This document shows positions 6,246 through 57,293 of a stretch of DNA of 64,000 bases, piece after piece. The translations under genes and the position numbers were made by a program. Each line of letters starts with the position of its first letter. The first letter of the stretch is position 1. The stretch comes from an uncultured Gemmatimonadales bacterium (GTDB taxonomy: Bacteria; Gemmatimonadota; Gemmatimonadetes; Gemmatimonadales; GWC2-71-9): positions 310,244 to 374,243 of the forward strand of contig CAWIXT010000006.1 of the NCBI GenBank assembly GCA_963840165.1, written 5' to 3'. The notes below the pieces were generated by a model. The model was not told the origin of the DNA. It was given only the letters and a program-made list of their open reading frames with translations, and did no database searches.

Positions 6246-8616
6246 AATCTGTCGCTCGATCGCCTCCAGCACCCAGCGCCGCACCCAGGGCCGAGAGTCG
6301 CTCCCGGTGCTGAACCAGCGCGGTCAGCGCCCGAGTGTCTCCCTCGGAGGCCAGGGTGGCCAGCACCAGGGACGGCAGCTGCTGGTCGCCGAGAATCTTT
6401 TCCAGTCCGTCGATGAGCGTCGAATCAGGCGCGCGGGCCGCGGCGGCGATCGCCGCGTTCTGAATGACGTCGCGGTAGGAGGACGTGGTCGAGCCCGGCC
6501 AGCACCGGGGCCGAGACCCGACCGAATCGATGCGGGCGAGAACGGCAAGCGCGCCGGCTCGGACCTCGTAGCTCGAGTCGCGCTTCCAGGCATTCAGGGC
6601 GGCGGTCTGCGCCCGCTCCCGCCCAGAGCTCCCAGGCTGCTGATTGCCGCCTCCCGCACCGCGGCGGAGGTGTCGCGCATCGCGGCCTCCAGCGGCGGTA
6701 GCGCCACCCGCGCCGGGAACCGGCGCAGCGCCCTCGCCGCCTCAGCCCGGGTCAGATAGTAGTCCGCCCGCTGGGCCGCTCGCGCCAGCGCCGCTGCCGC
6801 AAGCGAGTCGTCGGCCGCGCTGGGCCAGCTGATCGATCACCCAGCTCCGGTTCCAGAGATCGGGATCGCGAAACAGCTGGGTGGCCAGCCAGCGAGTCGG
6901 CTGCTCGAAGGCGAGCGTCTTGACCATGGCGTTGTTCTCGTCGAACACCACCATCTGGGGCTGCGATTTCACGCCCTCCGATCAGGATGACCTGCTCCCG
7001 CCGGTCCAGCTGGACCCGCTTCCGCACGTCCCCGGCTGAGGTGCCCACCCGGATCATGACCGGCCCCTGAAAGACCAGCGGGGTGGCGAACCGAAGACCG
7101 GAGCTGTCGGCTCGGGCGGTGTCCACCTGGGATCTGGTGCACCGTCAGCGCAAGCGTCCCCGCGACGGAATCGTACGCGGCAGTGACGTTGAACTCGGGG
7201 TAGCCCGCCGGATAGATCCACTGGTTCCAGAACCAGTCCAGGTTCCGCCCGGTGGCATAGAGCACCGCGCGCCGGAGATCGTCGCTGGTGGCGTTGCCGA
7301 AGGCATGCCGGGTGAGATACCGGTTGATGGAGGCCCAGAACCGCTCCGGACCCAGATGCTTCTTCAGCATCTGCAGGACCAGGGCGCCCTTGGTGTAGAC
7401 GTTGTTGGAGTTGAACGACGGCCAGCGGCACCCGCCGCCGGGCATCGGCGGCCAGGAAACGCCGGTACTCGTCGAGGTAGAAGTCGTCCTCCGCATGGCG
7501 GCCCAGCTTCGTGCCCCAGTACTGCCCGGCCATGAACTCGGCCATCCCCTCGTTGAGCCAGTAGTTGGACCAGTTCTCGGTGGTGACCAGGTTGCCGAAC
7601 CACTGGTGGGCGAGCTCATGCGGGATCAGCGAGTGGCGATACCAGGGCCGGTCGCGATAGGCTCGGGCATCCGGCAGCCAGTCCACCAGGGTGGTGGCGC
7701 CCACGTTTTCCATCCCGCCGATGAAGTCGGTGACGGTGGTCTGCGGGTAGCCGGCCCAGGGGTACTTCACGCCGGTGAGCCGGGTGAAGACCTCCATCAT
7801 GTCCGGTGTCGCGCCGAAGAGGCGGCGAGCCAGCGGCAGGTCCTCGGAGTAGACGTAGTACTCCAGCGGGATGTCACGCCAGCGCTCGGTCACCTTGGTC
7901 AACGGCGCAACTACCAGCGAGACCAGATAGGTCGAGGCGGGCCGCTCCTGACGCCAGTGCACGGTGTGGGTCCGCTGCTTTGCCGCGGCCGGAGAGCCTC
8001 GACTCACCGGATCGGGTTTGTCGCTCACCAGCCGGCCGTTCGAGACAACCGTGAGACCCACCGGCACCCGGGCGATCAGCTCCCAGGTCGCCTTGTCGTG
8101 GGGGCCGGCGTAGGTGGGAATCCAGTTGGGATTGCCGTCGGTGCCGCCGCCGCTGTACACCTGCTGGGTCCGCCGTCGGCGGCCGGGCTCGGCCTTGAAG
8201 AAGTAGAGACCGCGGCCCTGCATCACCTTGCCGCGATAGTCGATGGTGAGACGCATCGTGTCGCGGAAACCGGCCGGTCGCGGCAGCCGCACGACGATCG
8301 AATCACCCACCCGCGAATACTGGACGGGCGGACGGGCGGACGGGCGGACGGTTGAACGCGCCGAGCTCAGGGTGACGGTGCGGACGGCCAATCGCCGACC
8401 CATGTTCAGTACGATCGAATCCAGTCCCGGCTTGAGCGACACGAGCGTGGTGCTCACGTTGCCGTCGAAGGCGGTGGCATCCCAGTCGAAGTTGCCGACC
8501 TCGATGCGCTGATGAATGAGGTCGTAGTCGTGCGACGGGGTATCGCGGCCGCTGAGGATCCGTTCGGCGTTGGACTGCTGCGCCGAGAGCGAGGCGAGCC
8601 CCAGGAGCATCCTCAT
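6231..8616 (-). pseudogene. pepN: M1-family aminopeptidase N with a C-terminal HEAT-like repeat region; at least 6 frameshifts
   Basis: The GGMENVG exopeptidase motif and HELAHQWFGN...WLNEG gluzincin motif lie in ORF 7054..8625. The protein continues in other frames (6969..7619, 6752..7126, 6742..6972, and unlisted frames down to about 6231). The ATG at 8616 gives MRMLLGLASLSAQQ. Confidence 0.8.
8322..8379. repeat. 8-bp tandem array (GGACGGGC x3.75) plus a core-like segment embedded in frame in the pepN coding sequence
   Basis: Plus-strand ggacgggcggacgggcggacgggcggacgg occupies 8322-8351. The adjacent gctcagggtgac is identical to 12 nt of the intergenic core element. The region is translated as TVTLSSARSTVRPSARPPVQ in ORF 7054..8625. 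Confidence 0.7.
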
Positions 8617-8689
8617 CCCGAGCAACGCGAGGGATCAGCCGGCGCACGCGCGGACGTCGAGTAGGTCCCTCGCTGCGCTCAGGATGAGG
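8611..8689. repeat. Palindromic core element: two inverted arms of about 25 bp with a loop of about 27 bp
   Basis: cctcatcccgagcaacgcgagggatc (8611-8636) faces ggtccctcgctgcgctcaggatgagg (8664-8689). It lies between the pepN start and the rnhB stop. Confidence 0.8.
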
Positions 8690-8701
8690 AGCCCTCTTGG
8701 A

Positions 8702-9690: not shown

Positions 9691-9779
9691 GGTCCCATCC
9701 TCCTTCGGTCGTTCGGTATACGGAAAAGCTGCAACGATCTTAGTACTATGACCCGATTTGTCATCTGGCCTGCGACCGA

Positions 9780-9846
9780 GTCATCCGGAGTGCAACGAAG
9801 GATCCCTTCGATAGCGCGCAGAGATCCTTCGCTTCGCTCAGGATGA
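9780..9846. repeat. Palindromic core element (second copy of the 8611-type hairpin pair)
   Basis: gtcatccggagtgcaacgaaggatccc faces agatccttcgcttcgctcaggatgac. It lies between trmD and rplS. It accounts for the spurious peptide VILSEAKDL in ORF 9761..10513. Confidence 0.8.
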
Positions 9847-10523
9847 CGAATCGTGCTTCTCCCACAGGTCCGGCCGTCGCTCCCGGGTCAGCCGCTCCGA
9901 TTCCGCCTGCGCGCCACGCCGCGATCTCGGCGTGATTTCCCGAGCGCAGCACTTCGGCACCTCCAGCCCCCGATACTCCGGCGGCCGGGTATAGCTCGGC
10001 GGGCTCAGCAACCCGTCGTAGTGCGAGTCGGCGCTGGCCGATTCGTGATCGCCCAACGCGCCGGGCAGCAGCCGTACCACCGCATCGAGGACACACAGAG
10101 CGCCGCCGGCTCGCCTCCCGACAGCACGAAGTCGCCGATCGAGAGCTCCTCGGTGGCGAGCCCATCGGCCACCCGCTGGTCCACGTCCTTGTAGTGACCA
10201 CACAGCAGCGTGAGCCGTTCGACCCAGCGAGAAGCGCACCGCGTCGTCGTGGGTGAAGCGTCGCCCGCGCGCCGAGAGCAGCACGATCGGTCCGGTGGGC
10301 CGGAGCGTATCCACCGCCTCGAAGAACGGCTCCGGCTTCAGCACCATTCCCGCGCCGCCGCCATACGCGTAGTCGTCCACCGTCGAGTGGCGGTCGTGGG
10401 TGAAGTCTCGCAGCTGCACCAGGCGGAACTGACCAGTCCGGCCGCCGCGGCCCGGCCCGGAATGCTCGCTGCCACGTAGGGCGCGATGACTTCCGGAAAG
10501 AGGGTGACGACATCGATGGTCAA
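9838..10523 (-). pseudogene. trmD: tRNA (guanine37-N1)-methyltransferase; about 5 frameshifts
   Basis: A TTG start at 10523 gives MTIDVVTLFPEVIAPYV. The segments [45 protein letters not shown] and VLRSGNHAEIAAWR are all present, but in alternating frames. Confidence 0.85.
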
Positions 10524-10526
10524 CGT

Positions 10527-10638
10527 CGGTACGGCGGTAGGGCGGTAGGGCGGTATGCGTGAGCCCGTCTCGGATTCCATTCGGCACCCCTCACCTGCTG
10601 TTTACCGCCGTACCGTCCTACCGCCCTACCGCCTATCC
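10527..10638. repeat. Paired inverted arrays of the 8-bp repeat GGCGGTAG/CTACCGCC
   Basis: cggtacggcggtagggcggtagggcggtatgcg (10527-10558) faces tttaccgccgtaccgtcctaccgccctaccgcctatcc (10601-10638). The pair fills the whole rimM-trmD intercistronic gap. Confidence 0.85.
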
Positions 10639-11155
10639 CTCGATCAGTCCCTCCGGCGGCGTCACCACCAGCCTCCGCCCCGCCCGATCCACCTGCTGCA
10701 CGAACTCCTTCTTGTACGGCAGGAGAAACTCGCGCTTGGGCCCCTGCACCTCGATCATGATCCCCGAGGGGATCTCGTACACCGCGGAGACCAGCCCCAG
10801 CGGGGTCTCGTCCGGGCAGCCGCACGGAGAACCCGTCGAGCTCGTGGAGGTAGACCTCGTCGTCTGCCGGCGGCGTCAGCTGATCGGCCGGGACCCCGAG
10901 GAACGTGCCCCGGAACGGATCCAGCGCGTCGCGGCTGTCCACCTCCGCGAACTTCACCAGCCACTCGCGATGGTATTCCCTGCTGCGCTCGACCGTCAGC
11001 GGTCCGGCGACCGTCTCGCCGGCCAGGTTCACCACCCAGAGCTGCCGGCCCGGCGCGAAGTGGGTACCGGGATCGGCCGTCAGCGGGAACAGGGTGCAGT
11101 CACCCTTCAATCCGTGAGGCTTCCGCAGCCGGCCGACGACTACGTGGGCAGTCAC
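10633..11155 (-). pseudogene. rimM: 16S rRNA processing protein RimM; one +1 frameshift near 10814
   Basis: GTG start followed by VVVGRLRKPHGLKGD. After ELDGFSV, the PRC-barrel part (PLGLVSAVYEIPSGIMIEVQGPKREFLLPY...PPEGLIEG stop) reads in the next frame. Confidence 0.8.
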
Positions 11156-11259
11156 GAGTCACGAGTCACGAGTCACGAGTAACGCCGGCAGGCTATGATA
11201 ACACCGACCGAGCGGGCAGCTACCGACTCAGCGACTCGCGACTCGCGACTCGCGACTTC
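11149..11259. repeat. Paired inverted arrays of 7-bp repeats, (GTCACGA)n and (CGACTCG)n
   Basis: cagtcacgagtcacgagtcacgagtcacgagtaacg (11149-11184) faces ccgactcagcgactcgcgactcgcgactcgcgacttc (11223-11259). The pair overlaps the rpsP 3' end and the rimM start. Confidence 0.85.
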
Positions 11260-11511
11260 TGTCGAGAACACCCCCGCCTGCTTCAGCAGCGACTGCACCG
11301 TGTCCGACGGCGTCGCTCCCTTGGCGATCCATTGCCGAGCCTTCTCCGCGTCGACCTTGATCTTGTCGGCGGCCGTCTCGCCCTTCGGGTTGTAGGTGCC
11401 GATGATCTCGATGAAGCGCCCGTCGCGGGGCGCCTCCTGGTCGGCGATCACGATGCGGTAGAGCGGAAGCTTTTTCCGGCCGATCCGGCGGAGACGAATG
11501 CGAGTTGCCAT
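11173..11511 (-). CDS. rpsP: 30S ribosomal protein S16, with a C-terminal tail of about 30 aa encoded by the repeat element
   Basis: [35 protein letters not shown]. The ORF runs through the 7-mer array ([12 protein letters not shown]) before reaching its stop at 11173. Confidence 0.9.
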
Positions 11512-11532: not shown

Positions 11533-12878
11533 TTAACCGGGGAATCCGCCGCGTCCGAAAGGCAGCTTCAGACCGGCGCCTCCGGTCTTCCCCGCGATCT
11601 TCATGAACTTCTGCATCTGCTTGAACTGCGACAGCAAGGTGTTGACTTCCTGCACCGTGCGGCCCGACCCCTTGGCGATGCGCAGCCGGCGCTGGCCGTT
11701 GATGACGTCCGGGTTGCTTCGCTCCTTCGGCGTCATCGACAGCACGATCGCCTCGACGTGCTTCAGCTTCTTGTCGTCCAGCTTGGCCGCCTGCAGCATG
11801 GCCGGGTTCATCCCCGGCAGCATGCCGAGCACGTTCTTGAGCGGCCCCATCTTCTGCATCTGCCGCATGGCGTTCAGGAAGTCGCCCAGGTCGAGCCCCT
11901 TCTTCGACTGGACCTTCTTGGCCAGCCGCTCGGCTTCCTTCTCATCGACCGTCGTCTGCGCCTTCTCGACCAGCGACAGGATGTCGCCCTGCTGCAGGAT
12001 CCGCCCCGCCAGCCGGTCGGGATGGAACGGCTCCAGCGCGTCGAGCTTCTCGCCCACGCCGATGTACTTGATCGGCGCGTGGGTGACGCCGTAGATCGAG
12101 AGCGCCGCGCCGCCCCGGGCGTCGCCGTCCATCTTGGTCAGCACCACGCCGGTGATGCCGAGCGCGTCGTGGAAGCCCTGCGCGATCCGGACCGCGTCCT
12201 GGCCGGTCATGCCGTCGGCGACGAGCAGAATCTCGTGGGGCGACACCGCCGCCTTGAGCCGCTTCAGCTCGTCCATCATCTCGTCGTCGATCTGCAGCCG
12301 GCCCGCGGTGTCCACGATGACGGTCCGGGCCCGGGCCTTGCCCGCCGCCACGATCCCGTCGCGCACGATCTTGACGACGTCCTGGTTGCGCATTGTCGCT
12401 GTGGACCCCGACCTCGACCTGGCGTCCCAGCGTGTGCAGCTGGTCGATGGCTGCGGGACGGTACACGTCGGCCGCCACCAGGAACGGCGCCTTCTGCTCC
12501 AGCTTCAGCCGCCTGGCCAGCTTGCCGGCCGTGGTCGTCTTGCCCGACCCCTGCAGGCCGACCAGCAGGATGACCGTCGGCGGCACCGTGGCGTGCGCGA
12601 TCGGCGCCTGCTTCTCGCCCAGCAACAGCGACCAGCTCGTCGTACACGATCTTGACCAGCTGGTGGCCCGGCCGGACCTCCTTCAGTGCGGCGAGCCCGA
12701 TCGCCTTCTCCTGGACCCGGGTAAGGAAGTCCCGGGTCAGATCGAAGCTGACGTCGGCCTCGAGCAGAATCCGCCGGATCTCCCGGAGCCCTTCCTTGAC
12801 CGCCTCTTCCGTCAGAACGCCGCGCCCGGTAAGCCGCTGGAGCGTGGCGTTGAGTTTGCTCGAAAGCTCGTCGAACAT
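11533..12878 (-). pseudogene. ffh: Signal recognition particle protein Ffh; two frameshifts, near 12630 and 12395
   Basis: The N domain MFDELSSKLNATLQRLTG is in ORF 12276..13085. The G domain [15 protein letters not shown] is in 11942..12625. DTAGRL, DGDARGG and the Met-rich M domain are in 11533..12393. Confidence 0.9.
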
Positions 12879-12916
12879 AAGCCCGTAAGAGTAGCAGCGG
12901 AGCGGACTTTCTTCAA

Positions 12917-13076
12917 GGCGGGCGGACTGGCGGGCGGACAGGCGGCAGGCGGACAGGCGGCAGGCGGACAGGCGGACAGGCGGACAGGCGGACAGGCGGA
13001 CAGGCGGACAGGCGGACAGGCGGACAGGCGGACAGGCGGACAGGCGGACAGGCGGACAGGCGGACAGGCGGACAGA
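12917..13076. repeat. Long tandem array of the 8-bp unit GGCGGACA: about 14 perfect plus about 5 degenerate units, roughly 160 bp
   Basis: Read directly from the sequence: ggcggacaggcggacagg... runs without interruption from about 12963 to 13075, with degenerate units from 12917. It lies in the ffh / DUF445 divergent intergenic region. Confidence 0.95.
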
Positions 13077-13085
13077 AGGGAACAC

Positions 13086-13220
13086 CTCATCCCGAGCAAC
13101 GCGAGGGATCTGCTCAGTCAGTTCCCGAACAATGTTGAGTAGGTGCTGCGCTCGCTGGACTCACGCAGGCTGAGGTGTCCTGTTTCCGTCCGCCTTACCG
13201 CCCTACCGCCTTACCGCCTA
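13086..13220. repeat. Single core-element arm plus a C-rich 8-mer array (CTTACCGC/CCTACCGC)
   Basis: cctcatcccgagcaacgcgagggatc at 13086-13110 is identical in 25/26 nt to 8611-8636. tgtcctgtttccgtccgccttaccgccctaccgccttaccgcc lies at 13177-13220. Confidence 0.65.
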
Positions 13221-13229
13221 ATTTCCACC

Positions 13230-14494
13230 ATGCAGCCCAGCGCGCCGATGCAGCCTATCAGAGACGAGGAAGAGCGGCAGCGGCAGCTCGACCGCATGAA
13301 GCGCCGGGCCACCGGGCTCCTGGTGTTCATGGGGGCCGTCTTCTGGTGGCCCGCGTGCTGGAGCCGCGCTACCCCTGGCTCGGCTACGTCCGGGCCACCG
13401 CCGAGGCCTCACTGGTCGGCGGCATCGCCGACTGGTTTGCCATCACCGCGCTGTTCCGCCACCCGCTCAACCTGCCGATCCCCCACACCGCGATCATCCC
13501 CAGCCGGAAGGACAAGATCGGACGCAGCCTCGGCAACTTCGTGCAGAACAACTTCCTGTCGCCCGAGGTCCTTTCGGCCAAGCTGCGAGCCGCCGAGATC
13601 AGCCGCCGGGCTGCCGAGTGGCTGGCCGATCCGGAGAACGCGCGGAAGGCCGCGCGCAACATCGGCGTCGGTGCTGCAAAGCGCGGGCAAGGTATCCGGG
13701 ACGAAGACGTGCACGCGCTGCTGGACCGGAGCGTGATCGAGCCGCTACGGCGGGTGCCGATCGCGCCGGTGTTATCGAAGGGGCTGGAGCTGCTCACGGT
13801 GGACGACCGGCACCAGCAGCTGCTCGACCGGGTCATCAGGTGGCTGACCACGCTGGTGGCCGAGAACGAGGCGCTGATCCGGGACCGGATCCGGGAGGAG
13901 AGCCCCTGGTGGGTACCGGAGATGGTGGACGACAGGATTCACCGGAAGGTGCTGGGCGGGATCGAGCGGACCCTCTATGAGGTTGGGGTCGATCCGGATC
14001 ATCGACTGCGACATCAGTTCGATCAGCTGCTCAGCGAGTGGATCGTTCAGCTGCAGGAGTCACCGGAGGTGATCGCCCGGGCCGAGGCGATCAAGCAGCA
14101 GGTGCTCGATCCCGAAACCAGCGGGCGGATGGCCGCGTCGCTCTGGAACGAGGTCGAAGAGGCGCTGGGCCGCCAGGACCAGTCGAGCGAGGGCGGAGCG
14201 CTCGATGCGGTGGCCCGGGGCCTCTCGGCGCTGGCGCGAGCGGCGCTGGACGATGAAGCGCTGCTGGAAAAGATCGACGGCTGGGTCATCGGGGCGGTGC
14301 TGCGGGTGGTGGATCAGCACCGCCACGAAGCCGGCCAGCTGATCGCCCAGACTGTAAGCGCGTGGGATCCCGAGGAGACCTCGCGCCGGATCGAGCTGCT
14401 GGTGGGGAGAGACCTGCAGTTCATCCGTATCAACGGCACCTTAGTCGGTGGCTTGGTGGGGCTACTGCTCTACTCCGCCACCAGGCTGCTTTAG
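13230..14494 (+). pseudogene. DUF445-family membrane protein; one frameshift near 13340
   Basis: The N-terminus MQPSAPMQPIRDEEERQRQLDRMKRRATGLLVFMGAVF is in ORF 13143..13736. The remainder (GGIADWFAITALFRHPLNLPIPHTAIIP ... INGTLVGGLVGLLLY) is in ORF 13175..14494. Confidence 0.7.
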
Positions 14495-14517
14495 TTCGGA
14501 ACCGGGTGCCGCAGAGT

Positions 14518-16621
14518 TCATCTGAGTGTTACCCGCACCGGATGGCTGGACGAAGTGATCGTTCCATTTCCTAGCTGTCCCGAGGCGTTGAGGCCCCAGC
14601 AGTATCCGGCGCCTTCGTTGGTGATTCCGCACGCGTGTGAGCCACCGGCATCAATCTGGGTGAAGCTGATGCCGCCTTCCACGGGCGCCGGCACCAACTG
14701 CGGACTAGCCGTGCCGCCCCCAAGTGCCCGCCCCCAGCAGTAGCCGGTACCGCTCGAGCCCAGACCACAGCTGAAGGCGTCGCCGGCGCTCAGGGCGCTG
14801 AACTCGATCCCACCTGCGACCGCCACTGGCGTGGTACGCCCGGTGGTCGAGCCGTCCCCTATGGCACCGGCACCATTGGCCCCCCAGCAGAAGGCCTGAC
14901 CATTGGAGATGGCACAGCTATGATATGTGCCTACCGTTAGACTCCCCGGCACGAACACCAGCGATGTTGACACCGGTCGTGGAGTGGTGCTGCACACCAG
15001 ACCGTCGCAGAGCTCGGTCAGCGCCGTGCTGCCCGTCCCAAGCTGCCCATTGGCATTCACGCCCCAGCAGAAGGCCCGGCCGGAGATGTCGATCGCGCAT
15101 GAGTGCGCAGCCCCGGCGGCGGCCGATCCGAAGCTGCTTGCGGACAGGAGTACAGGAACAGCCTGCTCGTCGGTTCTTCCATTGCCGATCTGCCCGAACC
15201 GGCCATCGCCCCAGCAATACACCCGGGCCGAGGTAGTCAGCGCGCAGTTTACGAACCCTTGATTGCTGGTGACCGAACCAGTCGTGCTCCCGAGAGAAAC
15301 ATCCACTCGACGCACTGCCAGGCCCCCCGCCACCGCCGCGGGTGTATCCTGCCGCACCGACCAGGTGCCGTTACCCACCTGAGAGTACTCGTTGTTTCCC
15401 CAGCAGTAGGCCTTTCCAGTCACACTGCGGCCACAGGTATTTCGATGGCCGGCATGGATGCCAGCCCAGGTCACCGCGCCCGAGATTGGCAGCGGTTTCG
15501 ATGAGCTGGTAGGTAGGGCGGCGAGCTGTCCCGACGAATTGCTGCCCCAGCACAAGGCCTCACCCGTAGTGGTCACGCCGCACGTGTGTTGCTGTCCGGC
15601 GCTCACCGCGGCTAAAGCAAGAACGCTGAGTGTTGGGCTCTGACTTTGGAGCGGGGCACCATCAATGGTGGCGTGAATTGGCGCCGACGCCGTAGCACCC
15701 GTGGCCGTAAACAGGGCTGTGTACGTACCGTCTCCGCGATCCAGGGTACTGCCAAACGATCCCGCCGCCGGCTGCCCCAGGCTGAACGTCACGGTCCATC
15801 CACCGGTGGTGAGCGGGTTGCCGGCAGCGTCTCTCGCGTGAAGTGTTACTGTCACCGTGTCACCCACCAGAAGCCGTGAAACCGGCGCGGTAATCGTCGA
15901 CGGCACCGGCGCCACGTCGAATGCTGCCGACGTTGCGAACTGCGCATCCGGCCCGGTGGCCGTCAGCTGATAACCCGGACCGGCGACATCGATCGCCAGA
16001 TCATTGAAGGTCGCAATCCCGCCCACGGCACTGACAACGGTGGTACCCGACAAGGTGGCGCCCGCCGAGTTGGGGGCGACCTGCAGGGAGATCGTCACCG
16101 GGCCGGCTACCAGTTGTCCGGCACCGTCACGGACGTGGATTATGGGCTGCTGAGCGAACGTCTCACCCGCCGTGGCGCCACTGGGTTGCCGCGCAAAGCT
16201 CAGCTCGGACATGCCTGGAGGCAGCTCGGAAACGTCAAAAGTTGCGGACGTGGCAGACTGGATCCCCGCTCCGGTAGCGACGAGCTTGTAGTCCGAGCCT
16301 GCGGCACTGACAGCAAGATCCGCAAAGCTCGCTCTCCCAGCACTGGCGGTCATGACGGTGGTGCCGGATAAGGCAACACCGCTGGTCGTGGGTATCAGCG
16401 TAACGCTGATGGATATGGCGTCGGTAACCAGTTGACCTCCGCCGCCACGAATTTCGATGATCGGCTGCTGAACGAACGGCACGCCGGCTGTTGCACCAGT
16501 CGGTTGCTGCACAAAGACCAGTGAGATGGGCAGGCTCTCCTCGTGGGTGCTCCGCCACAGCTGACACTGCCGAACAGCACCGGCAGAATGCAAAGCCGCA
16601 GAATTTTGCGGTCGAGAGCAT
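14518..16621 (-). pseudogene. Surface lipoprotein with tandem Ig-like domains and a seven-blade RCC1-repeat beta-propeller; two frameshifts inside the signal peptide
   Basis: Seven CWGxNxxGQLG-type blades (CWGSNSSGQLA, CWGNNEYSQVG, CWGDGRFGQIG, CWGVNANGQLG, CWGANGAGAIG, CWGRALGGG, CWGLNASGQLG). Two near-identical modules of about 100 aa (QQPxGATAG...) plus a Big-like module. The lipoprotein signal KILRLCILPVLFGSVSCGG is only readable in a neighbouring frame between the ATG at 16621 and the main ORF. Confidence 0.75.
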
Positions 16622-16871
16622 GAGTCGGATTCACAGATATCGCCCCATGGTTGGTTGGGACTTGGAACCGCTGAGACGCAAGCAAAGAAAAGACTCCGAA
16701 GCCCGCTGATCCCCGAGCAGGAGGCATGCCAACGGGGAATCAACTGGGGTCTAGCTGGCGGGGTAGCCAGGCAACCTCATAGAATGAGCGATCCCGTCCG
16801 CCGGACGAGGGTTATGGGCAGCATTCACATCTTAGAGGTGGGTGGTGCGGCGTCTTACAAAGCAAGAGGGC

Positions 16872-38550: not shown

Positions 38551-39594
38551 ATGACCACGCGACATCTGCTGGTGCTGGGGGCAGCCGCCCTTGCTTTCGG
38601 CACGCCTGCCGCGGCCCAGAAACTGACCGGCGCCGGCGCAACGTTCCCGAACCCGATTTACACCAAGTGGTTCGACGCGTACAACAAGAAGACCGGCATC
38701 GAGATCAACTACCAGTCTATCGGGTCCGGCGGAGGCATCCGCCAGTACACCGAGGGCACCGTCGACTTCGGCGCCACCGACGGCCCCATGAACGAGTCCC
38801 AGATCCAGGCGGTGAGCGGCAACGTCCTCCATGTTCCCGCCGTGCTGGGCGCGGTGGTGGTGACCTACAACCTCCCCACCCTGGGAGACACCAAGCTCAG
38901 GTTCGACGGCAACCTGCTGGTCGACATCTTCATGGGCCGGGTGACCAAGTGGAACGACCCCAAGATCGCGGCGCTCAATCCGGGCGTGAAGCTGCCCGGC
39001 ATAGACCTCATCGTGGTGCATCGCTCCGACGGTTCCGGCACCACCTATGTGTTTACCGACTACCTGAACAAGTTTTCCCGGGAGTGGAAGGACAAGGTCG
39101 GCTACGCGACGTCGGTGAACTGGCCGGTTGGGCTGGGTGGCAAGGGCAATGAGGGCGTGACTCAGCAGGTAAAGCAGGTCGAAGGCGCGCTCGGGTACGT
39201 GGAGCTGATCTATGCCCTGTCCAACAACCTGCCGTACGCCCAGGTCAAGAACCCAGCGGGAAATTTCAGCACTCCGTCTCTGGAATCGGTGACTGCCGCC
39301 GCCGCAGGCATCAAGCTGCCCAAGGACACCGACTTCCGGGTGTCGATCACCAATGCGCCGGGCGCGGACGCATACCCAATCGCCTCGTTCACCTGGCTGC
39401 TGGTTCGGAAGGACAACAAGGATACTGCCAAGGCCAAGCTGATCCGGGATTTCCTGACCTGGATGATTACACCCGAGGCCCAGAGAATGGCCTCCGACCT
39501 CCACTATGCACCGCTGCCGGCGCCGGTGATCGCTCTGGTCCAAGAGCGCCTGTCCACGCTGAAAGCGGGCGGCAAATCAATCGCCTCGCGCTGA
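38551..39594 (+). CDS. pstS: Phosphate ABC transporter substrate-binding protein (signal-peptidase-I type)
   Basis: LTGAGATFPNPIYTKWF, YQSIGSGGGIRQ, TVDFGATDGPM and HRSDGSGTT. A GAGGA Shine-Dalgarno precedes the ATG. Confidence 0.9.
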   Translation: MTTRHLLVLGAAALAFGTPAAAQKLTGAGATFPNPIYTKWFDAYNKKTGIEINYQSIGSGGGIRQYTEGTVDFGATDGPMNESQIQAVSGNVLHVPAVLGAVVVTYNLPTLGDTKLRFDGNLLVDIFMGRVTKWNDPKIAALNPGVKLPGIDLIVVHRSDGSGTTYVFTDYLNKFSREWKDKVGYATSVNWPVGLGGKGNEGVTQQVKQVEGALGYVELIYALSNNLPYAQVKNPAGNFSTPSLESVTAAAAGIKLPKDTDFRVSITNAPGADAYPIASFTWLLVRKDNKDTAKAKLIRDFLTWMITPEAQRMASDLHYAPLPAPVIALVQERLSTLKAGGKSIASR

Positions 39595-39613
39595 CGGGGC
39601 ACCTGCGTCTGGG

Positions 39614-39643
39614 AACGGCCGGGGCCGCGAGGCGCCGGCCGTT
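39614..39643 (+). terminator. Weak stem-loop (possible attenuator) after pstS1
   Basis: AACGGCCGG-12 nt-CCGGCCGTT forms a 9-bp stem. Only TTT follows, so it is not a canonical intrinsic terminator. Confidence 0.3.
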
Positions 39644-39706
39644 TGCACATCCGGCGGAACCGGATCACCTTGGAGCGAGGGTTAGCGCTCCACCCTGGAG
39701 GAGCCT

Positions 39707-40768
39707 TTGCCGAGAACCAGATGTCACCACCTGATCGGCCTGACGGTTGTCGTGGCCGCATGTGGAGGGGACCAGCGGACGCCAGGAGCATCCACGGACG
39801 GCTCCGCCCCACGACGGAGCGGTCCGGCGCTGACCGGCGCCGGGGCTACCTTCCCCGCTCCACTCTACACCAAGTGGTTCGATGTCTTCGCCCGGGAGAC
39901 CGGGATTCAGATCAATTACCAGTCGATCGGATCCGGCGGCGGCATCCGTCAATTTATCGAGGGCACGGTGGACTTCGGCGCCACCGACGGTCCCATGACG
40001 GACCAACAGATTGCGGCGGTTGAAGGAAACGTCCTGCACCTGCCCACCGCGCTCGGTGCCGTCAGCGTGACCTACAACCTCCCCACGCTCGGCGCGACCC
40101 CGCTTGCCTTCGACGGTCGGGCCCTGGCCGGGATTTTTCTGGGACGGATTACCCGCTGGAACGATCCGCGGCTGGCAGCCCTGAATCCCGGAGTGAGCCT
40201 GCCTCCGGACGATATCGTAGTGGTTCGGCGCTCGGACGGGTCGGGGACCACCTTCATCTTCACCGACTATCTCTCCAAGGTCTCGCCCGAATGGACCGAT
40301 AACGTCGGAAGGGGGACGGCGGTGAACTGGCCTGTGGGGCTCGGCGGCAAGGGCAATGAAGGTGTCACCCAGCAGGTCAAGCAAGCCCCGGGCACTATCG
40401 GGTATGTCGAACTGATTTATGCCATCTCCAACAAACTCCCGTCAGCCCGGATCCGGAACGCGGCCGGGGCGCTGGTCCAGCCGACCCTGAAGAGCGTGGC
40501 GGCCGCCGCGGCGGGCGCGAAGCTGGGACCCGACACTGATTTCCGGGTCTCGATCACCAACGCACCGGGTGGCGATTCATACCCGATTGCGTCCTTTACC
40601 TGGCTGTTGATCAGAAAACAGGATCCCGACACCATCCGGGCCCGGACCATCGCGACCTTTCTGAAATGGATGCTGGAGCCACCGGCCCAGCGGATGGCAG
40701 CCGACCTGCACTACGCGCCATTGCCGGTTCCGGTCATCGAGCTGGCCCGGAGAAGGATTCCGGACTAG
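39707..40768 (+). CDS. pstS: Phosphate ABC transporter substrate-binding protein, lipoprotein paralogue
   Basis: A TTG start is preceded by GGAGGAG. LIGLTVVVAACGG is a lipobox. The same PstS motifs are present (GAGATFPAPLYTKWF, YQSIGSGGGIRQ, RRSDGSGTT). Confidence 0.9.
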   Translation: MPRTRCHHLIGLTVVVAACGGDQRTPGASTDGSAPRRSGPALTGAGATFPAPLYTKWFDVFARETGIQINYQSIGSGGGIRQFIEGTVDFGATDGPMTDQQIAAVEGNVLHLPTALGAVSVTYNLPTLGATPLAFDGRALAGIFLGRITRWNDPRLAALNPGVSLPPDDIVVVRRSDGSGTTFIFTDYLSKVSPEWTDNVGRGTAVNWPVGLGGKGNEGVTQQVKQAPGTIGYVELIYAISNKLPSARIRNAAGALVQPTLKSVAAAAAGAKLGPDTDFRVSITNAPGGDSYPIASFTWLLIRKQDPDTIRARTIATFLKWMLEPPAQRMAADLHYAPLPVPVIELARRRIPD

Positions 40769-42680: not shown

Positions 42681-43509
42681 ATCCGCGGTGAGCAAAGCGC
42701 TTCCAGTTTCCGCCGGCGCCATACCGCCGGCTCCCGTGGCCCCTCCGGGGGCCCAGCCCAAGATGGCCACCGACAAGCTCACTGCCATGTATGGCAAGTT
42801 CACGGCGGTGAAGGGAGTGTCGCTCGGCTTTGCGCCCAATCAGGTGCACGCCCTGATCGGACCTTCCGGCTGCGGCAAGTCCACCTTCCTGCGCACCCTC
42901 AACCGGATGCACGAGCTTTCGGACAACGGCTGGATTACCGGCCGGGTCCTGCTCGAGGGCGAGGACATCTATGCGCCGAGGGTGAATGCCATGCAGCTGC
43001 GCCGCCGGGTCGGGATGGTCTTCCAGCGTCCCACACCGTTCCCCACCATGTCGGTGTACGACAACGTCGCGGCCGGGCTCCGGGTGAACCGCAGCCTCCC
43101 TCGCTCCGAGCTCGATAGCGTGGTGGAGCGTTCGCTGCGCCAGGCCGCTCTCTGGGAAGAGGTCAAGGACCGGCTCAAGGCCAGTGCCATGGCGCTTTCG
43201 GGCGGCCAGCAGCAGCGGCTCTGTATCGCCCGAACCATTGCGCCGTCGCCGGACGTGGTCCTCCTGGACGAGCCTACGGCCTCGCTCGATCCCCAGGGCA
43301 CCCAGCGGATCGAGGAGCTGCTGTTCGACCTGAAGCGGCACTTCACGATCGTCATCGTCACCCACAACATGCAGCAGGCCGCCCGGGTGTCCGACACCAC
43401 GACGTTTTTCTACCTCGGCACCATGGTCGAGACCGGCCGTACCCGGCAGATCTTCACGGCGCCACGGAACGAGCAGACCGAGGCCTACATCACGGGAAGG
43501 TTCGGATGA
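42673..43509 (+). CDS. pstB: Phosphate ABC transporter ATP-binding protein PstB (intact copy)
   Basis: Walker [10 protein letters not shown], signature [13 protein letters not shown], Walker [12 protein letters not shown], and C-terminal EAYITGRFG. Confidence 0.9.
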
Positions 43510-44354
43510 GCACTACCATGACTCCCAGGCCCTTCGTCACTGCACCGCAGGTAACGCTGGCCCCGCGCCAGCCGGTGGCCCCACTCGGTTCCAGAGGAGC
43601 CCCAGCGGTGGACGTGCGGGACTTCAGCTTCTTCTACGGGCCCCGTCAGGCGCTCGAAGAATCTGACCTTCGCCATCGAGCGCCGGGCGGTCACCGCGAT
43701 CATCGGCCCCTCGGGGTGCGGCAAGTCCACCTTCCTCCGCTCCATCAACCGGTTGAACGACCTCATCCCAGGCGTCCGCCACCGCGGGGATATCCTGGTC
43801 GAGGGCACCTCCGTCTTCGGTTCCGGGACCGATCTGGTCTCGCTGCGCCAGCGGGTGGGCATGGTGTTTCAGCGGCCCGAACCCGTTTCCCAAGTCGGTC
43901 TTCGACAACGTGGCATACGGGCCGGCACTCAACGCCCTGGTCACGCGGCGCGACCTGCCCGATCTGGTCGAGCGCTGCCTGCGTCAGGCCGCGCTGTGGG
44001 ATGAAGTGAAAGACCGGCTCGAGGAGCTCGGCACCGGCCTGTCCGGAGGGCAGCAGCAGCGGCTCTGCATCGCCCGGGCGCTGGGCAATCAGCCCGAGGT
44101 GCTGCTGATGGACGAGCCCTGCTCGGCACTCGACCCCATCGCCACTCAGAAGGTGGAGGAGCTGATCTTCGATCTGAAGCAGCACTACACCATCGTGATC
44201 GTAACCCACAACATGCAGCAGGCCGCGCGGGTCTCGGACTACACCGGCTTCTTCGACCGCGGGCGAGCTCATCGAGTTCGACGAGACCGAGCGGCTCTTC
44301 ACCAAGCCGCAGCACGAGCGGACCGAAGCGTACATCACCGGGAGATTCGGATGA
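43506..44354 (+). pseudogene. pstB: Second PstB ATP-binding protein; three +1 insertions
   Basis: The protein reads correctly only by shifting at about 43650, about 43880 and about 44258. The recovered sequence is FYGPRQAL / [25 protein letters not shown]...VGMVFQRP / [14 protein letters not shown]...[13 protein letters not shown]...DYTGFFDR / [30 protein letters not shown]. The three insertions total 3 nt, so the stop is back in the original frame. Confidence 0.85.
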
Positions 44355-46045: not shown

Positions 46046-48502
46046 TTACTCCCCGTAAGGGATCCAGATGTTCTTCACCTGGGTGGCCTGCTCCAGGAAC
46101 TCCTCGCCTGCACCGCGCCGTTGGTCCGCCCAATCCCGCCCCTTTCCATGGTCTACCCAGGTACGCTTCATATTCCCGGTGGACAGACGTTCCACCTCGG
46201 CCGACATCTCAGCCGTACCGAAGTACCATAACCCATCCACGTCGTCATGAGCAGCGAGAACCGGAGCCAGCTCTTCGCTGCTGCCGGTCACGAGATTGAT
46301 CACGCCGGCGGGCACATCGGAGGTGTCCAGCACCTGGTAGAGCTCGGTAGCGACCAGCGGTGCCTGCCGCGAGGGAATGGCCACGACGGTATTGCCCATG
46401 GCGATGGGCGGCAGGACAGTCGATAGCAGGGAGAGCAGCGGCTGCTCATCGGGACACACCACACCCATGACACCGATCGGCTCGGGCATGGCCAGCGTCA
46501 CATTGCGGTACGGCGTATGATGTACCGCCCCATCGTACTTGTCGGCCCAAGCAGCGTAGACGTAGATCCGCTCGATGGCCAGCTCCACCTCCCGCGCCGC
46601 CATGGCCGCATCGCCGGTGCTCATGGCAATCCGGCCGCTGAACTCTTCGGCGCGCGCGGCCAGATTTTCCGCCAGGTAGTAAAGCACCTGGGCCCGGTTG
46701 TGGGCCGTGCCACCCCCCCAGCCGGCCGCCTTGTGCGCCGCTTCCACCGCGTTGCGAATGTCCTTGCGGTTTCCCTGCCCCACCTCACCGATCTGGCGGC
46801 CGGATGCATCCATCACGGGCAGGCTGTAGCCCGAATCCGGACGCACCTGCTTACCGCCGATGTAGAGCTTGGCGGTTCGGTTGATCGGGGGGACGGGCGG
46901 ACCGGCGGACGGGCGGACGGGCTGCCGTAAGGGTGGGCGTTCGGCCGAAGCAGCCGACTTTCTCGTCTTGCTTCGGGCTGCCTGTCTGCCTGTCCGCCTG
47001 TCCGCCTGTCCGCCCGTCCGCCCGTCCGCCTGCTCGTCCGTCCGCCAGCGAAGGTACTCCCGCAGCCCCTCGCGCCCGCCTTCACGGCCGAAGCCACTCT
47101 CGCGATATCCACCAAATCCGCTGGCGGCGTCGAATACGTTGGTGCAGTTCACCCAGACGGTGCCGGCTTTGAGCTGGGGCGCGATATCGAGGGCGAGGTT
47201 GATGTTCTCGGTCCAGACGCTGGCAGCCAGGCCGTAGCGGGTGTTGTTGGCCAGCTCGACCGATTCGGCCGGAGTGCGGAAGGTCATGAGGACCACCACC
47301 GGTCCGAAGATCTCCACCTGGGCAATGGTGGCGGCGGGCGACACCTCGGTGAACAAGGTCGGCGGAAAGAACCAGCCATCGGCCGGGCAGCTCCAGGAGG
47401 GCTGCCAGAGGGTGGCGCCTTCGTCCTCGCCCCGGCGCACCAGGTCCTGGATTTTCTCCAGCTGAACCGGGGCGATGATGGCCCCCATGTCTACCGCCTT
47501 GTCGAGCGGGTCCCCCACCCGCAGCGTCTCCATTCGCTGCTTCAGCTTGGTCACCAGCCGCTCGGCCACCCCCTCCTGGACCAGGATGCGGGACCCGGCG
47601 CAGCACACCTGGCCCTGATTGAACCAGATGGCATCCACCACCCCCTCGACCACGCTGTCGAGATCGGCGTCCGAGAAGACGATGAATGGCGACTTCCCGC
47701 CCAGCTCCAGCGAGAGCTTCTTGCCGCTGCCGGCCGTGGCGGAGCGGATTATGCGGCCCACTTCGGTCGAGCCGGTGAACGCGATCTTGTCTACATCGGG
47801 GTGCCCCACCAGCGCTGCGCCGGCGCGTCCGTCTCCGGTGATGATGTTGATCACACCTGGCGGCAGGCCGATCTCCTGGGATAGCTCGGCGAACCGGAGA
47901 GCGGTGAGCGAGGTGAACTCCGCCGGCTTGAGCACCACCGTGTTACCCATGGCCAACGCCGGCGCGATCTTCCAGGCCAGCATGAGGAGCGGGAAATTCC
48001 AGGGGATGATCTGCCCGATCACGCCCAGCGGCAGGCGGCCAGGTAGCTCCTGCTCCATCAGCTGGGCCCAGCCCGCATGATGATAGAAGTGGCGGGCCAC
48101 GAGGGGCACGTCGATGTCGCGCGATTCCCGTATCGGTTTTCCGTTGTCGAGCGATTCCAGGACGGCCAGCAGGCGGCTGTGTTTCTGTACCTCCCGCGCC
48201 AACGCGTAGAGATACCGGGCTCGGCCGTGCCCACCGAGCGACCACCAGAGCGGCTGCGCCGATCGGGCGGCGCGGACGGCACGGTCTACCTCGGCATCGG
48301 TGGCCTGCGCCAGCCGCGCCACCGGCTTCCCGGTGGCCGGGTTCAACGTCTCGAAGCTGTCACCCTTTCCCGCTATCCACTCCCCACCGATGAAAAGACC
48401 GAACCGTCGCCCGTGGGCCTCGAGCCACTGGTTTACCGGGCCTACTCCTTCGGGAGCCGGTCCATAGTCCATCGACTGGAAGATTTCGGGAACTGATGCC
48501 AT
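46046..48502 (-). CDS. Fused aldehyde dehydrogenase: a full catalytic ALDH joined by a repeat-encoded linker to a truncated ALDH-like (NAD-binding only) module
   Basis: The N-terminal half has ELGGKSP and FNQGQVCCAGSR (catalytic Glu and Cys). The C-terminal part of about 280 aa (AKLYIGGKQVRPDSGY...KNIWIPYGE) is ALDH-like, but I could not see a catalytic Cys. There is no stop between the two halves. The ATG at 48502 has a GGAGG Shine-Dalgarno. Confidence 0.75.
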   Translation of the reverse strand: MASVPEIFQSMDYGPAPEGVGPVNQWLEAHGRRFGLFIGGEWIAGKGDSFETLNPATGKPVARLAQATDAEVDRAVRAARSAQPLWWSLGGHGRARYLYALAREVQKHSRLLAVLESLDNGKPIRESRDIDVPLVARHFYHHAGWAQLMEQELPGRLPLGVIGQIIPWNFPLLMLAWKIAPALAMGNTVVLKPAEFTSLTALRFAELSQEIGLPPGVINIITGDGRAGAALVGHPDVDKIAFTGSTEVGRIIRSATAGSGKKLSLELGGKSPFIVFSDADLDSVVEGVVDAIWFNQGQVCCAGSRILVQEGVAERLVTKLKQRMETLRVGDPLDKAVDMGAIIAPVQLEKIQDLVRRGEDEGATLWQPSWSCPADGWFFPPTLFTEVSPAATIAQVEIFGPVVVLMTFRTPAESVELANNTRYGLAASVWTENINLALDIAPQLKAGTVWVNCTNVFDAASGFGGYRESGFGREGGREGLREYLRWRTDEQADGRTGGQADRRTGRQAARSKTRKSAASAERPPLRQPVRPSAGPPVPPINRTAKLYIGGKQVRPDSGYSLPVMDASGRQIGEVGQGNRKDIRNAVEAAHKAAGWGGGTAHNRAQVLYYLAENLAARAEEFSGRIAMSTGDAAMAAREVELAIERIYVYAAWADKYDGAVHHTPYRNVTLAMPEPIGVMGVVCPDEQPLLSLLSTVLPPIAMGNTVVAIPSRQAPLVATELYQVLDTSDVPAGVINLVTGSSEELAPVLAAHDDVDGLWYFGTAEMSAEVERLSTGNMKRTWVDHGKGRDWADQRRGAGEEFLEQATQVKNIWIPYGE
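46887..47046. repeat. Paired inverted 8-mer arrays (GGACGGGC/GGCGGACA family) forming the ALDH interdomain linker
   Basis: ggggggacgggcggaccggcggacgggcggacgggc (46887-46922) faces gcctgtctgcctgtccgcctgtccgcctgtccgcccgtccgcccgtccgcctgctcgtccgtccgcc (46979-47046). A spacer of about 57 nt separates them. The element is translated as DEQADGRTGGQADRRTGRQAARSKTRKSAASAERPPLRQPVRPSAGPPVPP. Confidence 0.85.
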
Positions 48503-48521
48503 TGAACCTCCGCAAAAGCTC

Positions 48522-48718
48522 ACCACAGAGGACACAGAGGGCTCCTCTAACCGAGTGGCTCACGACATCGCGTGATTCGACTTCTTAAGAGAAATCTTTG
48601 GGTGGGCTCCTAACCGCATGGAGCTCCAACTCAATCCCACAAAAAACATCTTCAGGTAGTGGATCCCGCGATGTCGAAAACTTCGCCGGTCGCCGGCACC
48701 CTCTGTGTCCTCTGTGGT
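48522..48718. repeat. Nested palindromic element (about 197 bp) between deoC and the ALDH gene
   Basis: The outer inverted repeat is 20 bp and perfect: accacagaggacacagaggg (48522-48541) against ccctctgtgtcctctgtggt (48699-48718). The inner inverted repeat is 10 bp and perfect: cgacatcgcg (48563-48572) against cgcgatgtcg (48667-48676). The core is lower in GC. Confidence 0.85.
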
Positions 48719-54233: not shown

Positions 54234-54237
<4 letters not shown>

Positions 54238-54337
54238 CCCGAGGGTACCTCGGGTCACCCTGAGGCGGGAGTCGCCGAATGGTCCGTGACCCGAGGGTAC
54301 CTCGGGTCACCCTGAGGCGGGAATCGCCGAAGGGGAC
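54234..54337. repeat. Two tandem 52-bp repeats, each starting with a 25-nt palindrome
   Basis: gtgacccgagggtacctcgggtcaccctgaggcggga(g/a)tcgccgaa occurs at 54234 and 54286. The palindrome GTGACCCGAGG-GTA-CCTCGGGTCAC has an 11-bp stem. The first copy begins within the dnaK stop codon. Confidence 0.9.
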
Positions 54338-54383: not shown

Positions 54384-54479
54384 GACACCCAATGTGCCGA
54401 AACTCACCATGGCGGGTGGCTGTACTGTTAAATTGGACGGGTGCTGTATGATCCCCACGCTTCGCCGAAGGACCGCTCG

Positions 54480-56048: not shown

Positions 56049-56194
56049 GCGGGTAACCGGGTAACCGGGTAAGCCGGTAGAGTACACGAGGGGGCCAGAA
56101 GCTGAATAGAGCTCGGCCCCTTCGCTGCGCTCAGGGTGACAGAGGCTCTCCCCCCCGGCCTACCCGCTTACCCGCCCACCCGCTGTCCCGCTAC
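56049..56194. repeat. Paired inverted 8-mer arrays (GGGTAACC / TACCCGCY) enclosing a single core-element arm
   Basis: gcgggtaaccgggtaaccgggtaagccggtagag (56049-56082), core ccccttcgctgcgctcagggtgaca (56117-56141), and ggcctacccgcttacccgcccacccgctgtcccgctac (56157-56194). Confidence 0.8.
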
Positions 56195-57200: not shown

Positions 57201-57283
57201 GCAGCGGGGCAGCGGGGCAGCGGGGCAGCGGGGCAGCGGGGCAGCCAAACTAGCAAATTGTCACCCTGAGCGCAGCGAGGGGG
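57200..57283. repeat. 8-bp tandem array (GGCAGCGG x5.5, five GGGG tracts) followed by a core-element arm
   Basis: ggcagcggggcagcggggcagcggggcagcggggcagcggggcagcc (57200-57246), and tgtcaccctgagcgcagcgaggggg (57259-57283). The latter is the 24/25 reverse complement of 56117-56141. Confidence 0.9.
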
Positions 57284-57293
57284 CGGAGATACG

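Follow-up and report, generated by a model that had tools for sequence, protein, structure and literature searches.

The spacer between the divergent genes ffh and DUF445 of an uncultured Gemmatimonadales bacterium (assembly GCA_963840165.1, contig CAWIXT010000006.1, positions 310,244 to 374,243) carries a tandem octamer array of roughly 160 bp, with the unit GGCGGACA, at positions 12917-13075 of the window, by which we mean the whole stretch of 64,000 nucleotides analysed. We regard it as probable, with modest confidence, that this array arose when one arm of a paired repeat module recently expanded by slippage, and that it lies in untranscribed DNA directly 5' of the ffh -35 element. Most likely, it acts as a spacer of variable length and not as an on/off switch. 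A first-pass annotation of the window had treated the array as isolated; comparison with related loci (given here by L numbers) shows it instead to be an arm within a class of paired arrays found across the phylum. The features of the spacer and its flanks, including a hairpin arm resembling repetitive extragenic palindromes (REP), are as follows.

11533..12878, minus strand: ffh, the signal recognition particle (SRP) protein gene, first of the ffh-rpsP-rimM-trmD-rplS operon (Pfam SRP54_N, SRP54 and SRP_SPB; translations)
12888..12893, minus strand: predicted ffh -10 element TACTCT, 9 nt from the ATG (conserved promoter grammar)
12911..12916, minus strand: predicted ffh -35 element TTGAAG (conserved promoter grammar); the array begins at the adjoining base
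12917..12962, no strand: outer, degenerate part of the array (unit parsing); the CCGCCCGCC motif adjoining the -35 element is common to L001
12963..13074, no strand: perfect run of 14 x GGCGGACA; the ffh coding strand reads (TGTCCGCC)14 and is pyrimidine-rich
13076..13189, no strand: module core, containing an imperfect palindrome in which 13080-13089 pairs with 13171-13180 (fold centroid)
13085..13110, no strand: REP-like hairpin arm within the core, ATCCC...GGGAT, repeated exactly over 26 nt at 8611-8636 and present also in L022; related family D15
13188..13194, no strand: single GTCCGCC unit beside the core, the sole remaining copy of the array's matching partner arm (comparison with L086)
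13190..13221, no strand: outer right arm, (CCGCCTTA/CCGCCCTA)x4, common to L001 and L081
13219..13224, plus strand: DUF445 -10-like box TAATTT, 5 nt 5' of the ATG, the sole TAnnnT on the DUF445 strand of the spacer
13230..14494, plus strand: DUF445 gene, encoding a membrane protein (Pfam DUF445, E = 3e-108)

The array itself is recovered in agreement by Tandem Repeats Finder (TRF), by parsing into units and by a shuffle test. TRF delimits 12933-13075 with a period of 8, 18.1 copies, 97% matches and a score of 272, the maximum in the window, in line with the annotation's claim that this is the longest array present. Parsed by unit, 12917-13075 holds 16 perfect copies of GGCGGACA, 14 of them uninterrupted, and five variant units, close to the about 14 perfect and about five degenerate octamers originally described; the order is GGCG, GGCGGACT, GGCG, GGCGGACA, GGCGGCA, GGCGGACA, GGCGGCA and then the 14 perfect copies of GGCGGACA. 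The 16-mer GGCGGACAGGCGGACA, with at most one mismatch, has 17 matches in the window compared with 0.02 expected from shuffles, of which 13 fall within the ffh/DUF445 array and four lie on the opposite strand in another repeat module (46983-47022). The spacer measures 351 bp between the two ATGs (12878-12876 on the minus strand and 13230 on the plus strand), and the array occupies 45% of it, where about half had been estimated; its ffh-side end lies 38 bp from the ffh ATG, past the -35 element. The single core-element arm reported beyond the array is the REP-like arm at 13085-13110, and the C-rich array to the right is indeed just partly complementary to the left one, with 2 mismatches per unit.

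The ffh promoter emerged only through conservation, as a generic sigma-70 scan of 12800-13300 returned no promoter. Alignment of the 60 nt 5' of the ffh ATG across relatives gave a footprint of the form TTGnnn-N17-TAnnnT-N8-10-ATG, which is present in 129 of 155 relatives compared with 0.2% of shuffles; the spacer between -35 and -10 is 17 bp in 123 of those 129 loci. Phylum-wide, the ffh -35 consensus is TTG[C/A/T][C/T]C and the -10 element stands just 8-10 nt from the ATG (155 loci). This grammar has a single full match in 12860-13260 and eight in the whole window. On the other side of the spacer, a TAnnnT box 4-8 nt before the in-frame ATG is present in 19 of the 26 relatives with a divergent DUF445, and the corresponding box in the window is 145 bp from the array. 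The predicted ffh and DUF445 promoters would thus lie at either end of the spacer, facing outward. Transcription starts inferred from this conservation suggest that the ffh mRNA is leaderless or near-leaderless across Gemmatimonadota, and the DUF445 mRNA is probably essentially leaderless as well. The suggested leaderless state of ffh mRNA agrees with the low value listed for Shine-Dalgarno use in Gemmatimonadetes, on our reading of the table column (PMC10783764).

Because the ffh -35 element, -10 element and ATG all lie on the ffh side of the array, the array is outside both the -35/-10 spacer and the leader. The proposal that its length alters promoter spacing or the length of the 5' untranslated region (5'-UTR) is therefore not supported, since the conserved ffh promoter fits wholly between the array and the ATG. 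Rather, the array would be untranscribed upstream DNA between two outward-facing, leaderless-type promoters, setting the distance from the ffh promoter to that of DUF445. A change in copy number would then shift only this promoter-to-promoter distance and the DNA just 5' of the ffh -35 element, and may be neutral or mildly promoter-modulating.

Comparison with the orthologous spacer in relatives indicates how recent the array is. An Ffh-based scan of genomes gave 80 loci from Gemmatimonadales/Gemmatimonadaceae metagenome-assembled genomes (MAGs) and a scan of metagenomes gave 80 more; together with the window these make up the data set for all array statistics below (161 sequences, 1.18 Mb). 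The nearest relative, L001, is syntenic and about 93% identical in ffh DNA. The ffh-side array is absent in L001, L081 and L084, consists of 3 copies of the window unit in L086, and is replaced by long arrays of other units in L002, L129 and L023, all of which bears out the suggestion of a recent, lineage-specific expansion. In L054, L076, L077, L084 and L092, the DUF445-ffh spacer is compact and array-free; the distance between the two promoters is about 70-95 bp in compact relatives versus 351 bp in the window. The comparison with sister genomes which the annotation had recommended shows arrays that differ strongly between lineages, and a predicted core promoter that lies outside the array. 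Since array and unit content differ among the closest relatives, the tract is highly unstable on an evolutionary scale.

In several relatives, the spacer holds two complementary arms around a core: GCGGGGCA/TGCCCCGC in L082, GGCGGACG/CGTCCGCC with 3 copies each in L086, GCGGGGAA/CTCCCCGC in L089 and GGCGGTAC/GTACCGCC in L093. The cores of L086 and L093 are REP-like, with the element in the orientation opposite to that in the window. L081 has one arm only, (GGCGGTAA)3. Both arms always change together between lineages, which points to concerted evolution. Two lineages carry a gene-sized insertion of about 450 bp and lower GC in the centre of the DUF445-ffh module (L002, 4884-5469; L094, 502-1100), with the G-rich arm on one side and, on the ffh side, the long C-rich array; the centre of the module seems to be a hotspot for insertions.

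The same architecture is found well beyond this spacer. Arrays in the window are mostly paired: a core of 39-114 bp is flanked by a G-rich array to its left and by the reverse complement of that array to its right, and the units differ by locus (ACGGGAAGG, CGGTAGGG, AGTCACG, CGGGCGGA and CGGGTAAC); a few unit families recur within the window (GGCGGACR, GGCGGTAR and GGCAGCGG), and orthologous sites differ by lineage. Across the data set, array periods peak at 7, 8 and 9 bp and not at multiples of three, with 90 distinct units (49 of period 7, 26 of period 8 and 15 of period 9). Neighbouring arrays form 31 inverted and 2 direct pairs. The arms are also polar: in 24 pairs the purine/G-rich arm is 5', and in 1 the order is reversed (binomial p = 1.5e-6), a polarity that holds whichever strand is read. 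Purines make up 27% of arm units in the outward reading, in which T exceeds A in 53 units and A exceeds T in 16 (p = 9e-6). All the arrays examined are in intergenic spacers and none in conserved coding sequence; some modules lie between co-transcribed genes (rpsP/rimM and rimM/trmD), and open reading frames (ORFs) may read through them. Within the 1.18 Mb of sampled loci, modules P1, P2, P3 and P5 have cores of a single copy each, and only REP-like sub-motifs recur; as the cores are mostly unique sequences, the modules do not form one transposon family. Apparently, this class of paired-arm modules has not yet been described, as a search of the literature on Gemmatimonadota repeats, inverted octamer or heptamer arrays and the REP-like motif gave nothing relevant within the limited literature that is searchable.

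Several candidate explanations for the polarity were tried and rejected. As mimics of the -35 element, array units match the lineage -35 matrix no better than composition-matched shuffles (z = -1.16); as Shine-Dalgarno or anti-Shine-Dalgarno mimics, they score z = 0.00; and as stop-codon arrays in all frames, the purine arms are weakly enriched (33% vs 26%, z = 2.1), with GGCGGACA itself free of stops. Arm polarity is thus not explained by -35 mimicry, Shine-Dalgarno or anti-Shine-Dalgarno mimicry or stop-codon content. Not one of the 90 units contains TTG when read outward, in the pyrimidine-rich sense, where about 4.5 would be expected, and TG/CA dinucleotides are under-represented; the absence of TTG may reflect avoidance of spurious -35 elements.

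Measured against this class, the ffh/DUF445 module fits in polarity and in position, but its matching partner arm is a single unit and its fold does not surpass that of shuffled sequence; L086 has this unit pair at the orthologous site in intact form, with 3 copies in each arm. On both strands, the remaining five of the window's six modules give folds far stronger than those of their shuffles (z -4.6 to -8.6). A long hairpin or cruciform at the ffh/DUF445 spacer was therefore rejected, since the region folds no better than its shuffles (z +0.1 and -0.7; DNA fold z -0.87). No long hairpin forms here because the partner arm is down to one unit and a REP-like element occupies the core. A search of Rfam gave no match at gathering scores for the region and, up to E = 10, only chance matches to micro- and small nucleolar RNAs. 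In the process that we propose, slippage within arms together with intrastrand template switching between arms would keep the locus-specific units complementary, and loss of the partner arm would remove the instability of a long palindrome, allowing the ffh-side arm to reach about 20 units. Among arrays of at least 8 copies, 11 are unpaired and 1 is paired (Fisher p = 0.016), so that long arrays are nearly always unpaired; this fits the notion that long perfect palindromes are held short while a partnerless arm is free to grow.

Several observations weigh against such an expansion by slippage being the whole account. Long C-rich arrays stand flush with the ffh -35 element in at least eight lineages and are built from eight different units (18 copies in the window, 12.4 in L129, 12 in L002, at least 10.4 in L119, where the contig ends, 8.5 in L023, 8 in L011, 7 in L099 and 6.8 in L158). 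Six of the 12 arrays of at least 8 copies occupy the ffh -35 site (p = 6e-4 relative to noncoding DNA). Recurrence at this site speaks for selection, or for a mutational drive specific to the site, and not for plain neutral slippage. It could stem from slippage that negative supercoiling promotes upstream of a strong promoter, or from a selected upstream element. The 24:1 arm polarity is likewise unaccounted for by the model of slippage and template switching. The transcription starts of ffh and DUF445 are placed by conservation only, indel errors in both genes make the array length approximate, and look-ups with S16 and L19 together with a DNA-anchor scan of metagenomes found no contig of the same species across the spacer. 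In that search, the exact S16 look-up had no match, the L19 look-up gave one contig of 2.2 kb which ends before the spacer, and the DNA-anchor scan had no match for the same-species spacer.

The recurrence lends itself to a different account, which we think unlikely and count as the main rival, namely that the C-rich tract at the -35 element is a selected upstream promoter element tuning the ffh operon, with copy number heritably setting expression, for example through non-B DNA (a G-quadruplex or i-motif) under negative supercoiling between the promoters, or through protein binding. The independent recurrence of such arrays speaks for it, as do the C-richness of 19 of the 22 ffh-proximal arrays on the ffh coding strand, the enrichment of C in the 10 bp 5' of the -35 element in array-free relatives (C 0.46 vs G 0.29) and the high G4Hunter scores of the G strands of most ffh -35 arrays (1.7-2.25; other lineages 1.3-2.25). 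In Nostoc, heptamer repeats near promoters change reporter expression (10.1101/2022.06.06.494920). The unit of the window has a low quadruplex propensity, however: (GGCGGACA)6 has a G4Hunter score of 0.75, below the cut-off of about 1.2-1.5, and by this measure the array is not a G-quadruplex promoter element. The 90 distinct units have no common motif, which argues against one sequence-specific binder, many close relatives are without any array at the ffh site, and the comparison for ffh specificity had just eight other promoters of the strict type and was without statistical power. A phase-variable promoter or leader, in which slippage would switch ffh or DUF445 within a population through -35/-10 spacing or the 5'-UTR, is a reading to which we give very little weight. 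A long perfect tract should readily slip, and units and copy number do vary among relatives, but the conserved ffh -35 element, its 17-bp spacer, -10 element and ATG are all outside the array, the DUF445 -10-like box stands 5 nt from its own ATG and 145 bp away from the array, and ffh is an essential housekeeping gene. Essential housekeeping genes are unusual targets of contingency switching.

[quoted passage not shown] Modules are present or absent between close relatives (rimM-trmD, 12 bp in L001 vs about 105 bp in the window), their arms are inverted repeats of uniform polarity and the core holds a dispersed REP-like element whose orientation differs by lineage; against this, the cores P1, P2, P3 and P5 are single-copy in the 1.18 Mb sampled, the 90 distinct units vary by locus, comparison of the occupied with the empty rimM-trmD site reveals no target-site duplication, an orthologous module in L161 suggests loss in L001 and not gain in the window, and Pfam searches of the neighbouring genes found no transposase gene. 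An action at the RNA level, in which the module would terminate, stabilise or process transcripts, is highly unlikely at this site. Such roles have been proposed for the hairpins of cyanobacterial short tandemly repeated repetitive (STRR) sequences (PMC2670836), and the other window modules fold strongly, several of them between co-transcribed genes; the ffh/DUF445 module, though, folds no better than shuffles, lies between outward-pointing promoters and is hence probably not transcribed, and the advantage of the sense-strand fold expected from G-U wobble is inconsistent across modules.

We hold it extremely unlikely that the array is an artefact, inflated or invented by a long-read assembler or polisher. 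Its flanks do contain base-level errors. With respect to L001, L081 and L082, ffh has two 1-nt insertions, near 12630 and 12389, which are outside homopolymers, and with respect to L001, DUF445 lacks 1 nt of a G-run near 13333; the nearest genomes are long-read MAGs. The trmD gene is also split across two frames (9761-10587), and the frameshifts in ffh, DUF445 and trmD are probably sequencing or assembly errors. Because of such indel errors in the window, the array copy number and its two 7-mer variants are good to +/-1. Against an artefact stand the independent assemblies with arrays of 95-164 bp at the same site or of the same class (L002, L129, L117 and L094), the short-read contigs that stop within such arrays or exactly at the -35 element (L119 and L090), and the ordered degeneracy of the outer units, which is typical of genuine arrays. 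Contigs L090, L101, L106, L115 and L119, from short-read metagenomes, stop at 0-120 bp upstream of ffh; the break falls inside a (CCCGCGC)n array in L119 and exactly at the ffh -35 element in L090. Evidently, short-read assemblies are broken by such arrays.

An expanded module arm beside a promoter has likenesses to several known kinds of repeat. Cyanobacterial STRR sequences are intergenic heptamer arrays, some of which form hairpins, for instance between hupS and hupL (PMC2670836; 10.1101/2022.06.06.494920). Like the Gemmatimonadota class, they are short-period arrays of the 7-bp class, situated near promoters or start codons or between co-transcribed genes, and inverted arrays form hairpins in some cases in both; both host phyla also rarely use Shine-Dalgarno sequences (PMC10783764). 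STRR sequences, however, reuse few conserved units genome-wide, whereas the Gemmatimonadota class has at least 90 units of 7-9 bp, and the latter, in another phylum, is marked by the inverted pairing rule, purine-arm-first polarity and co-varying arms. The ffh array shares with STRR sequences its short tandem units in intergenic DNA (at period 8), and not the small set of reused units. The TAACTGA repeats of Beggiatoaceae, Cyanobacteria and Bacteroidetes consist of one conserved unit, with 169 direct sets and 1 inverted set; most sets stop about 1 nt short of the start codon, within the leader, and some species have up to 43 copies (MacGregor 2015, PMC4679880). They resemble the Gemmatimonadota arrays in being abundant, intergenic, of the heptamer class, present in ribosomal-protein operons too and subject to rules of orientation relative to genes, whereas the ffh array is a lineage-specific octamer GGCGGACA of an inverted-pair class (31 vs 2), upstream of the -35 element. 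Among the contingency loci of pathogens, the TAAA tract of Neisseria meningitidis nadA lies upstream of the core promoter and modulates rather than switches. Contingency loci and the ffh array have in common perfect, slippage-prone tandem tracts in the promoter region; the ffh array differs in its 8-bp unit, in lying outside the -35/-10 spacer and the leader and in adjoining an essential gene. Neither its position nor its flanking genes are those of a contingency locus, as ffh and the DUF445 membrane protein gene stand where a dispensable surface, restriction or virulence gene would be expected.

REP sequences and bacterial interspersed mosaic elements (BIMEs), and MITEs such as Correia and ERIC (PMC3184786, PMC3733652), are intergenic, palindromic, strain-variable and tolerated in operons and can be promoter-adjacent, which holds for the modules as well. 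Unlike either, the modules have locus-specific tandem-array arms and mostly unique cores, and neither a shared consensus nor target duplications were found. Assignment to REP/BIME suits the core arm at 13085-13110, with its copies at 8611-8636 and in L022 (family D15), and not the array itself; a core shared together with terminal repeats, as in MITEs, was not seen among the sampled loci, nor was a target-site duplication at the one site compared.

Other modules of the window show how these repeats affect genes. Pfam also supports S16, RimM, TrmD and L19 in the ffh operon. Between rimM and trmD, a 105-bp module in the window (10524-10636) faces a gap of 12 bp in L001 (7762-7783), within DNA that is 88-92% identical, and the more distant L161 (300-420) has an orthologous module with 6 units, compared with 4 in the window, and a conserved core, which suggests loss in L001 rather than gain in the window. 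By eye at this one site, the filled and empty pair had no flanking target-site duplication. The trmD start is seemingly TTG in the window and ATG-CTG in L001. The S16 (rpsP) ORF (11173-11511, minus strand) has no stop before the AGTCACG/CGACTCG module (11148-11259) and reads through it, gaining about 30 residues at its end. In RNA folding of this module, the sense strand is favoured over the antisense strand by about 18 kcal/mol. At 46046-48559 (minus strand), one ORF of 838 codons consists of two halves resembling aldehyde dehydrogenase, with a module at 46886-47046, and translating this CGGGCGGA/GCCTGTCC module in frame gives the linker RTDEQADGRTGGQADRRTGRQAARSK...PPVPP; this would be either a gene fusion or the loss of a stop codon at the module.

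The REP-like hairpins form a family of GTCATCCTGAGCGAAGCGAAGGATC and GTCACCCTGAGCGCAGCGAGGGG types, which gives 'VILSEAKDL' in spurious ORFs. Its sites in the window are 8611-8690, 9822-9849, 13085-13110, 56112-56142 and 57259-57288, and it is dispersed over many further loci, L004, L013, L094 and L107 among them. The stems have compensatory changes (ATCCT/AGGAT to ATCCC/GGGAT) and are often in the centre of repeat modules; a loose hairpin pattern of this type has 16 matches compared with 5 expected, and searches by sequence in Rfam and the literature gave no match for the family. At 54234-54334, two tandem palindromic copies of 49 nt (GTGACCCGAGGGTACCTCGGGTCACCCTGAGG...), 96% identical and 52 bp apart from start to start, lie in the gap 5' of a gene starting near 54432. 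A 2.4-kb segment following DUF445 (14494-16869), which encodes a 741-residue RCC1-repeat / Invasin_D3 protein (14518-16743, minus strand), is absent from the syntenic L001, where its flanks join directly. Two diverged tandem gene duplication pairs are found at 38623-40467 and 43121-44262 (73-76% identity, offsets 1207 and 844 bp), the second of which includes ABC-type ATPase Walker motifs.

On its own, the array is a hypervariable spacer and changes the understanding of the ffh operon little; it belongs among the known intergenic short tandem repeats, and it is its module class that merits separate study. Following the array up exposed a phylum-wide promoter footprint, according to which ffh, and probably DUF445, would be transcribed essentially leaderless in Gemmatimonadota, and an abundant class of inverted arms with locus-specific units of 7-9 bp, with concerted change of the arms and a near-invariant purine-first polarity, for which the searchable literature held no description. 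A bolder reading, which we find doubtful, is that a process or constraint dedicated to Gemmatimonadota builds the polar paired arms and that the arrays at the ffh -35 element are a selected upstream promoter element tunable by copy number. If it were true, the arrays would not be neutral products of slippage; they might act as a structural element that responds to supercoiling, or insulate the back-to-back leaderless promoters from each other. As the modules disrupt short-read assembly, lengthen or fuse ORFs and occupy essential operons, they matter for the annotation and assembly of MAGs of soil Gemmatimonadota, and they provide a natural system for the dynamics of palindromes and tandem repeats beside strong promoters.

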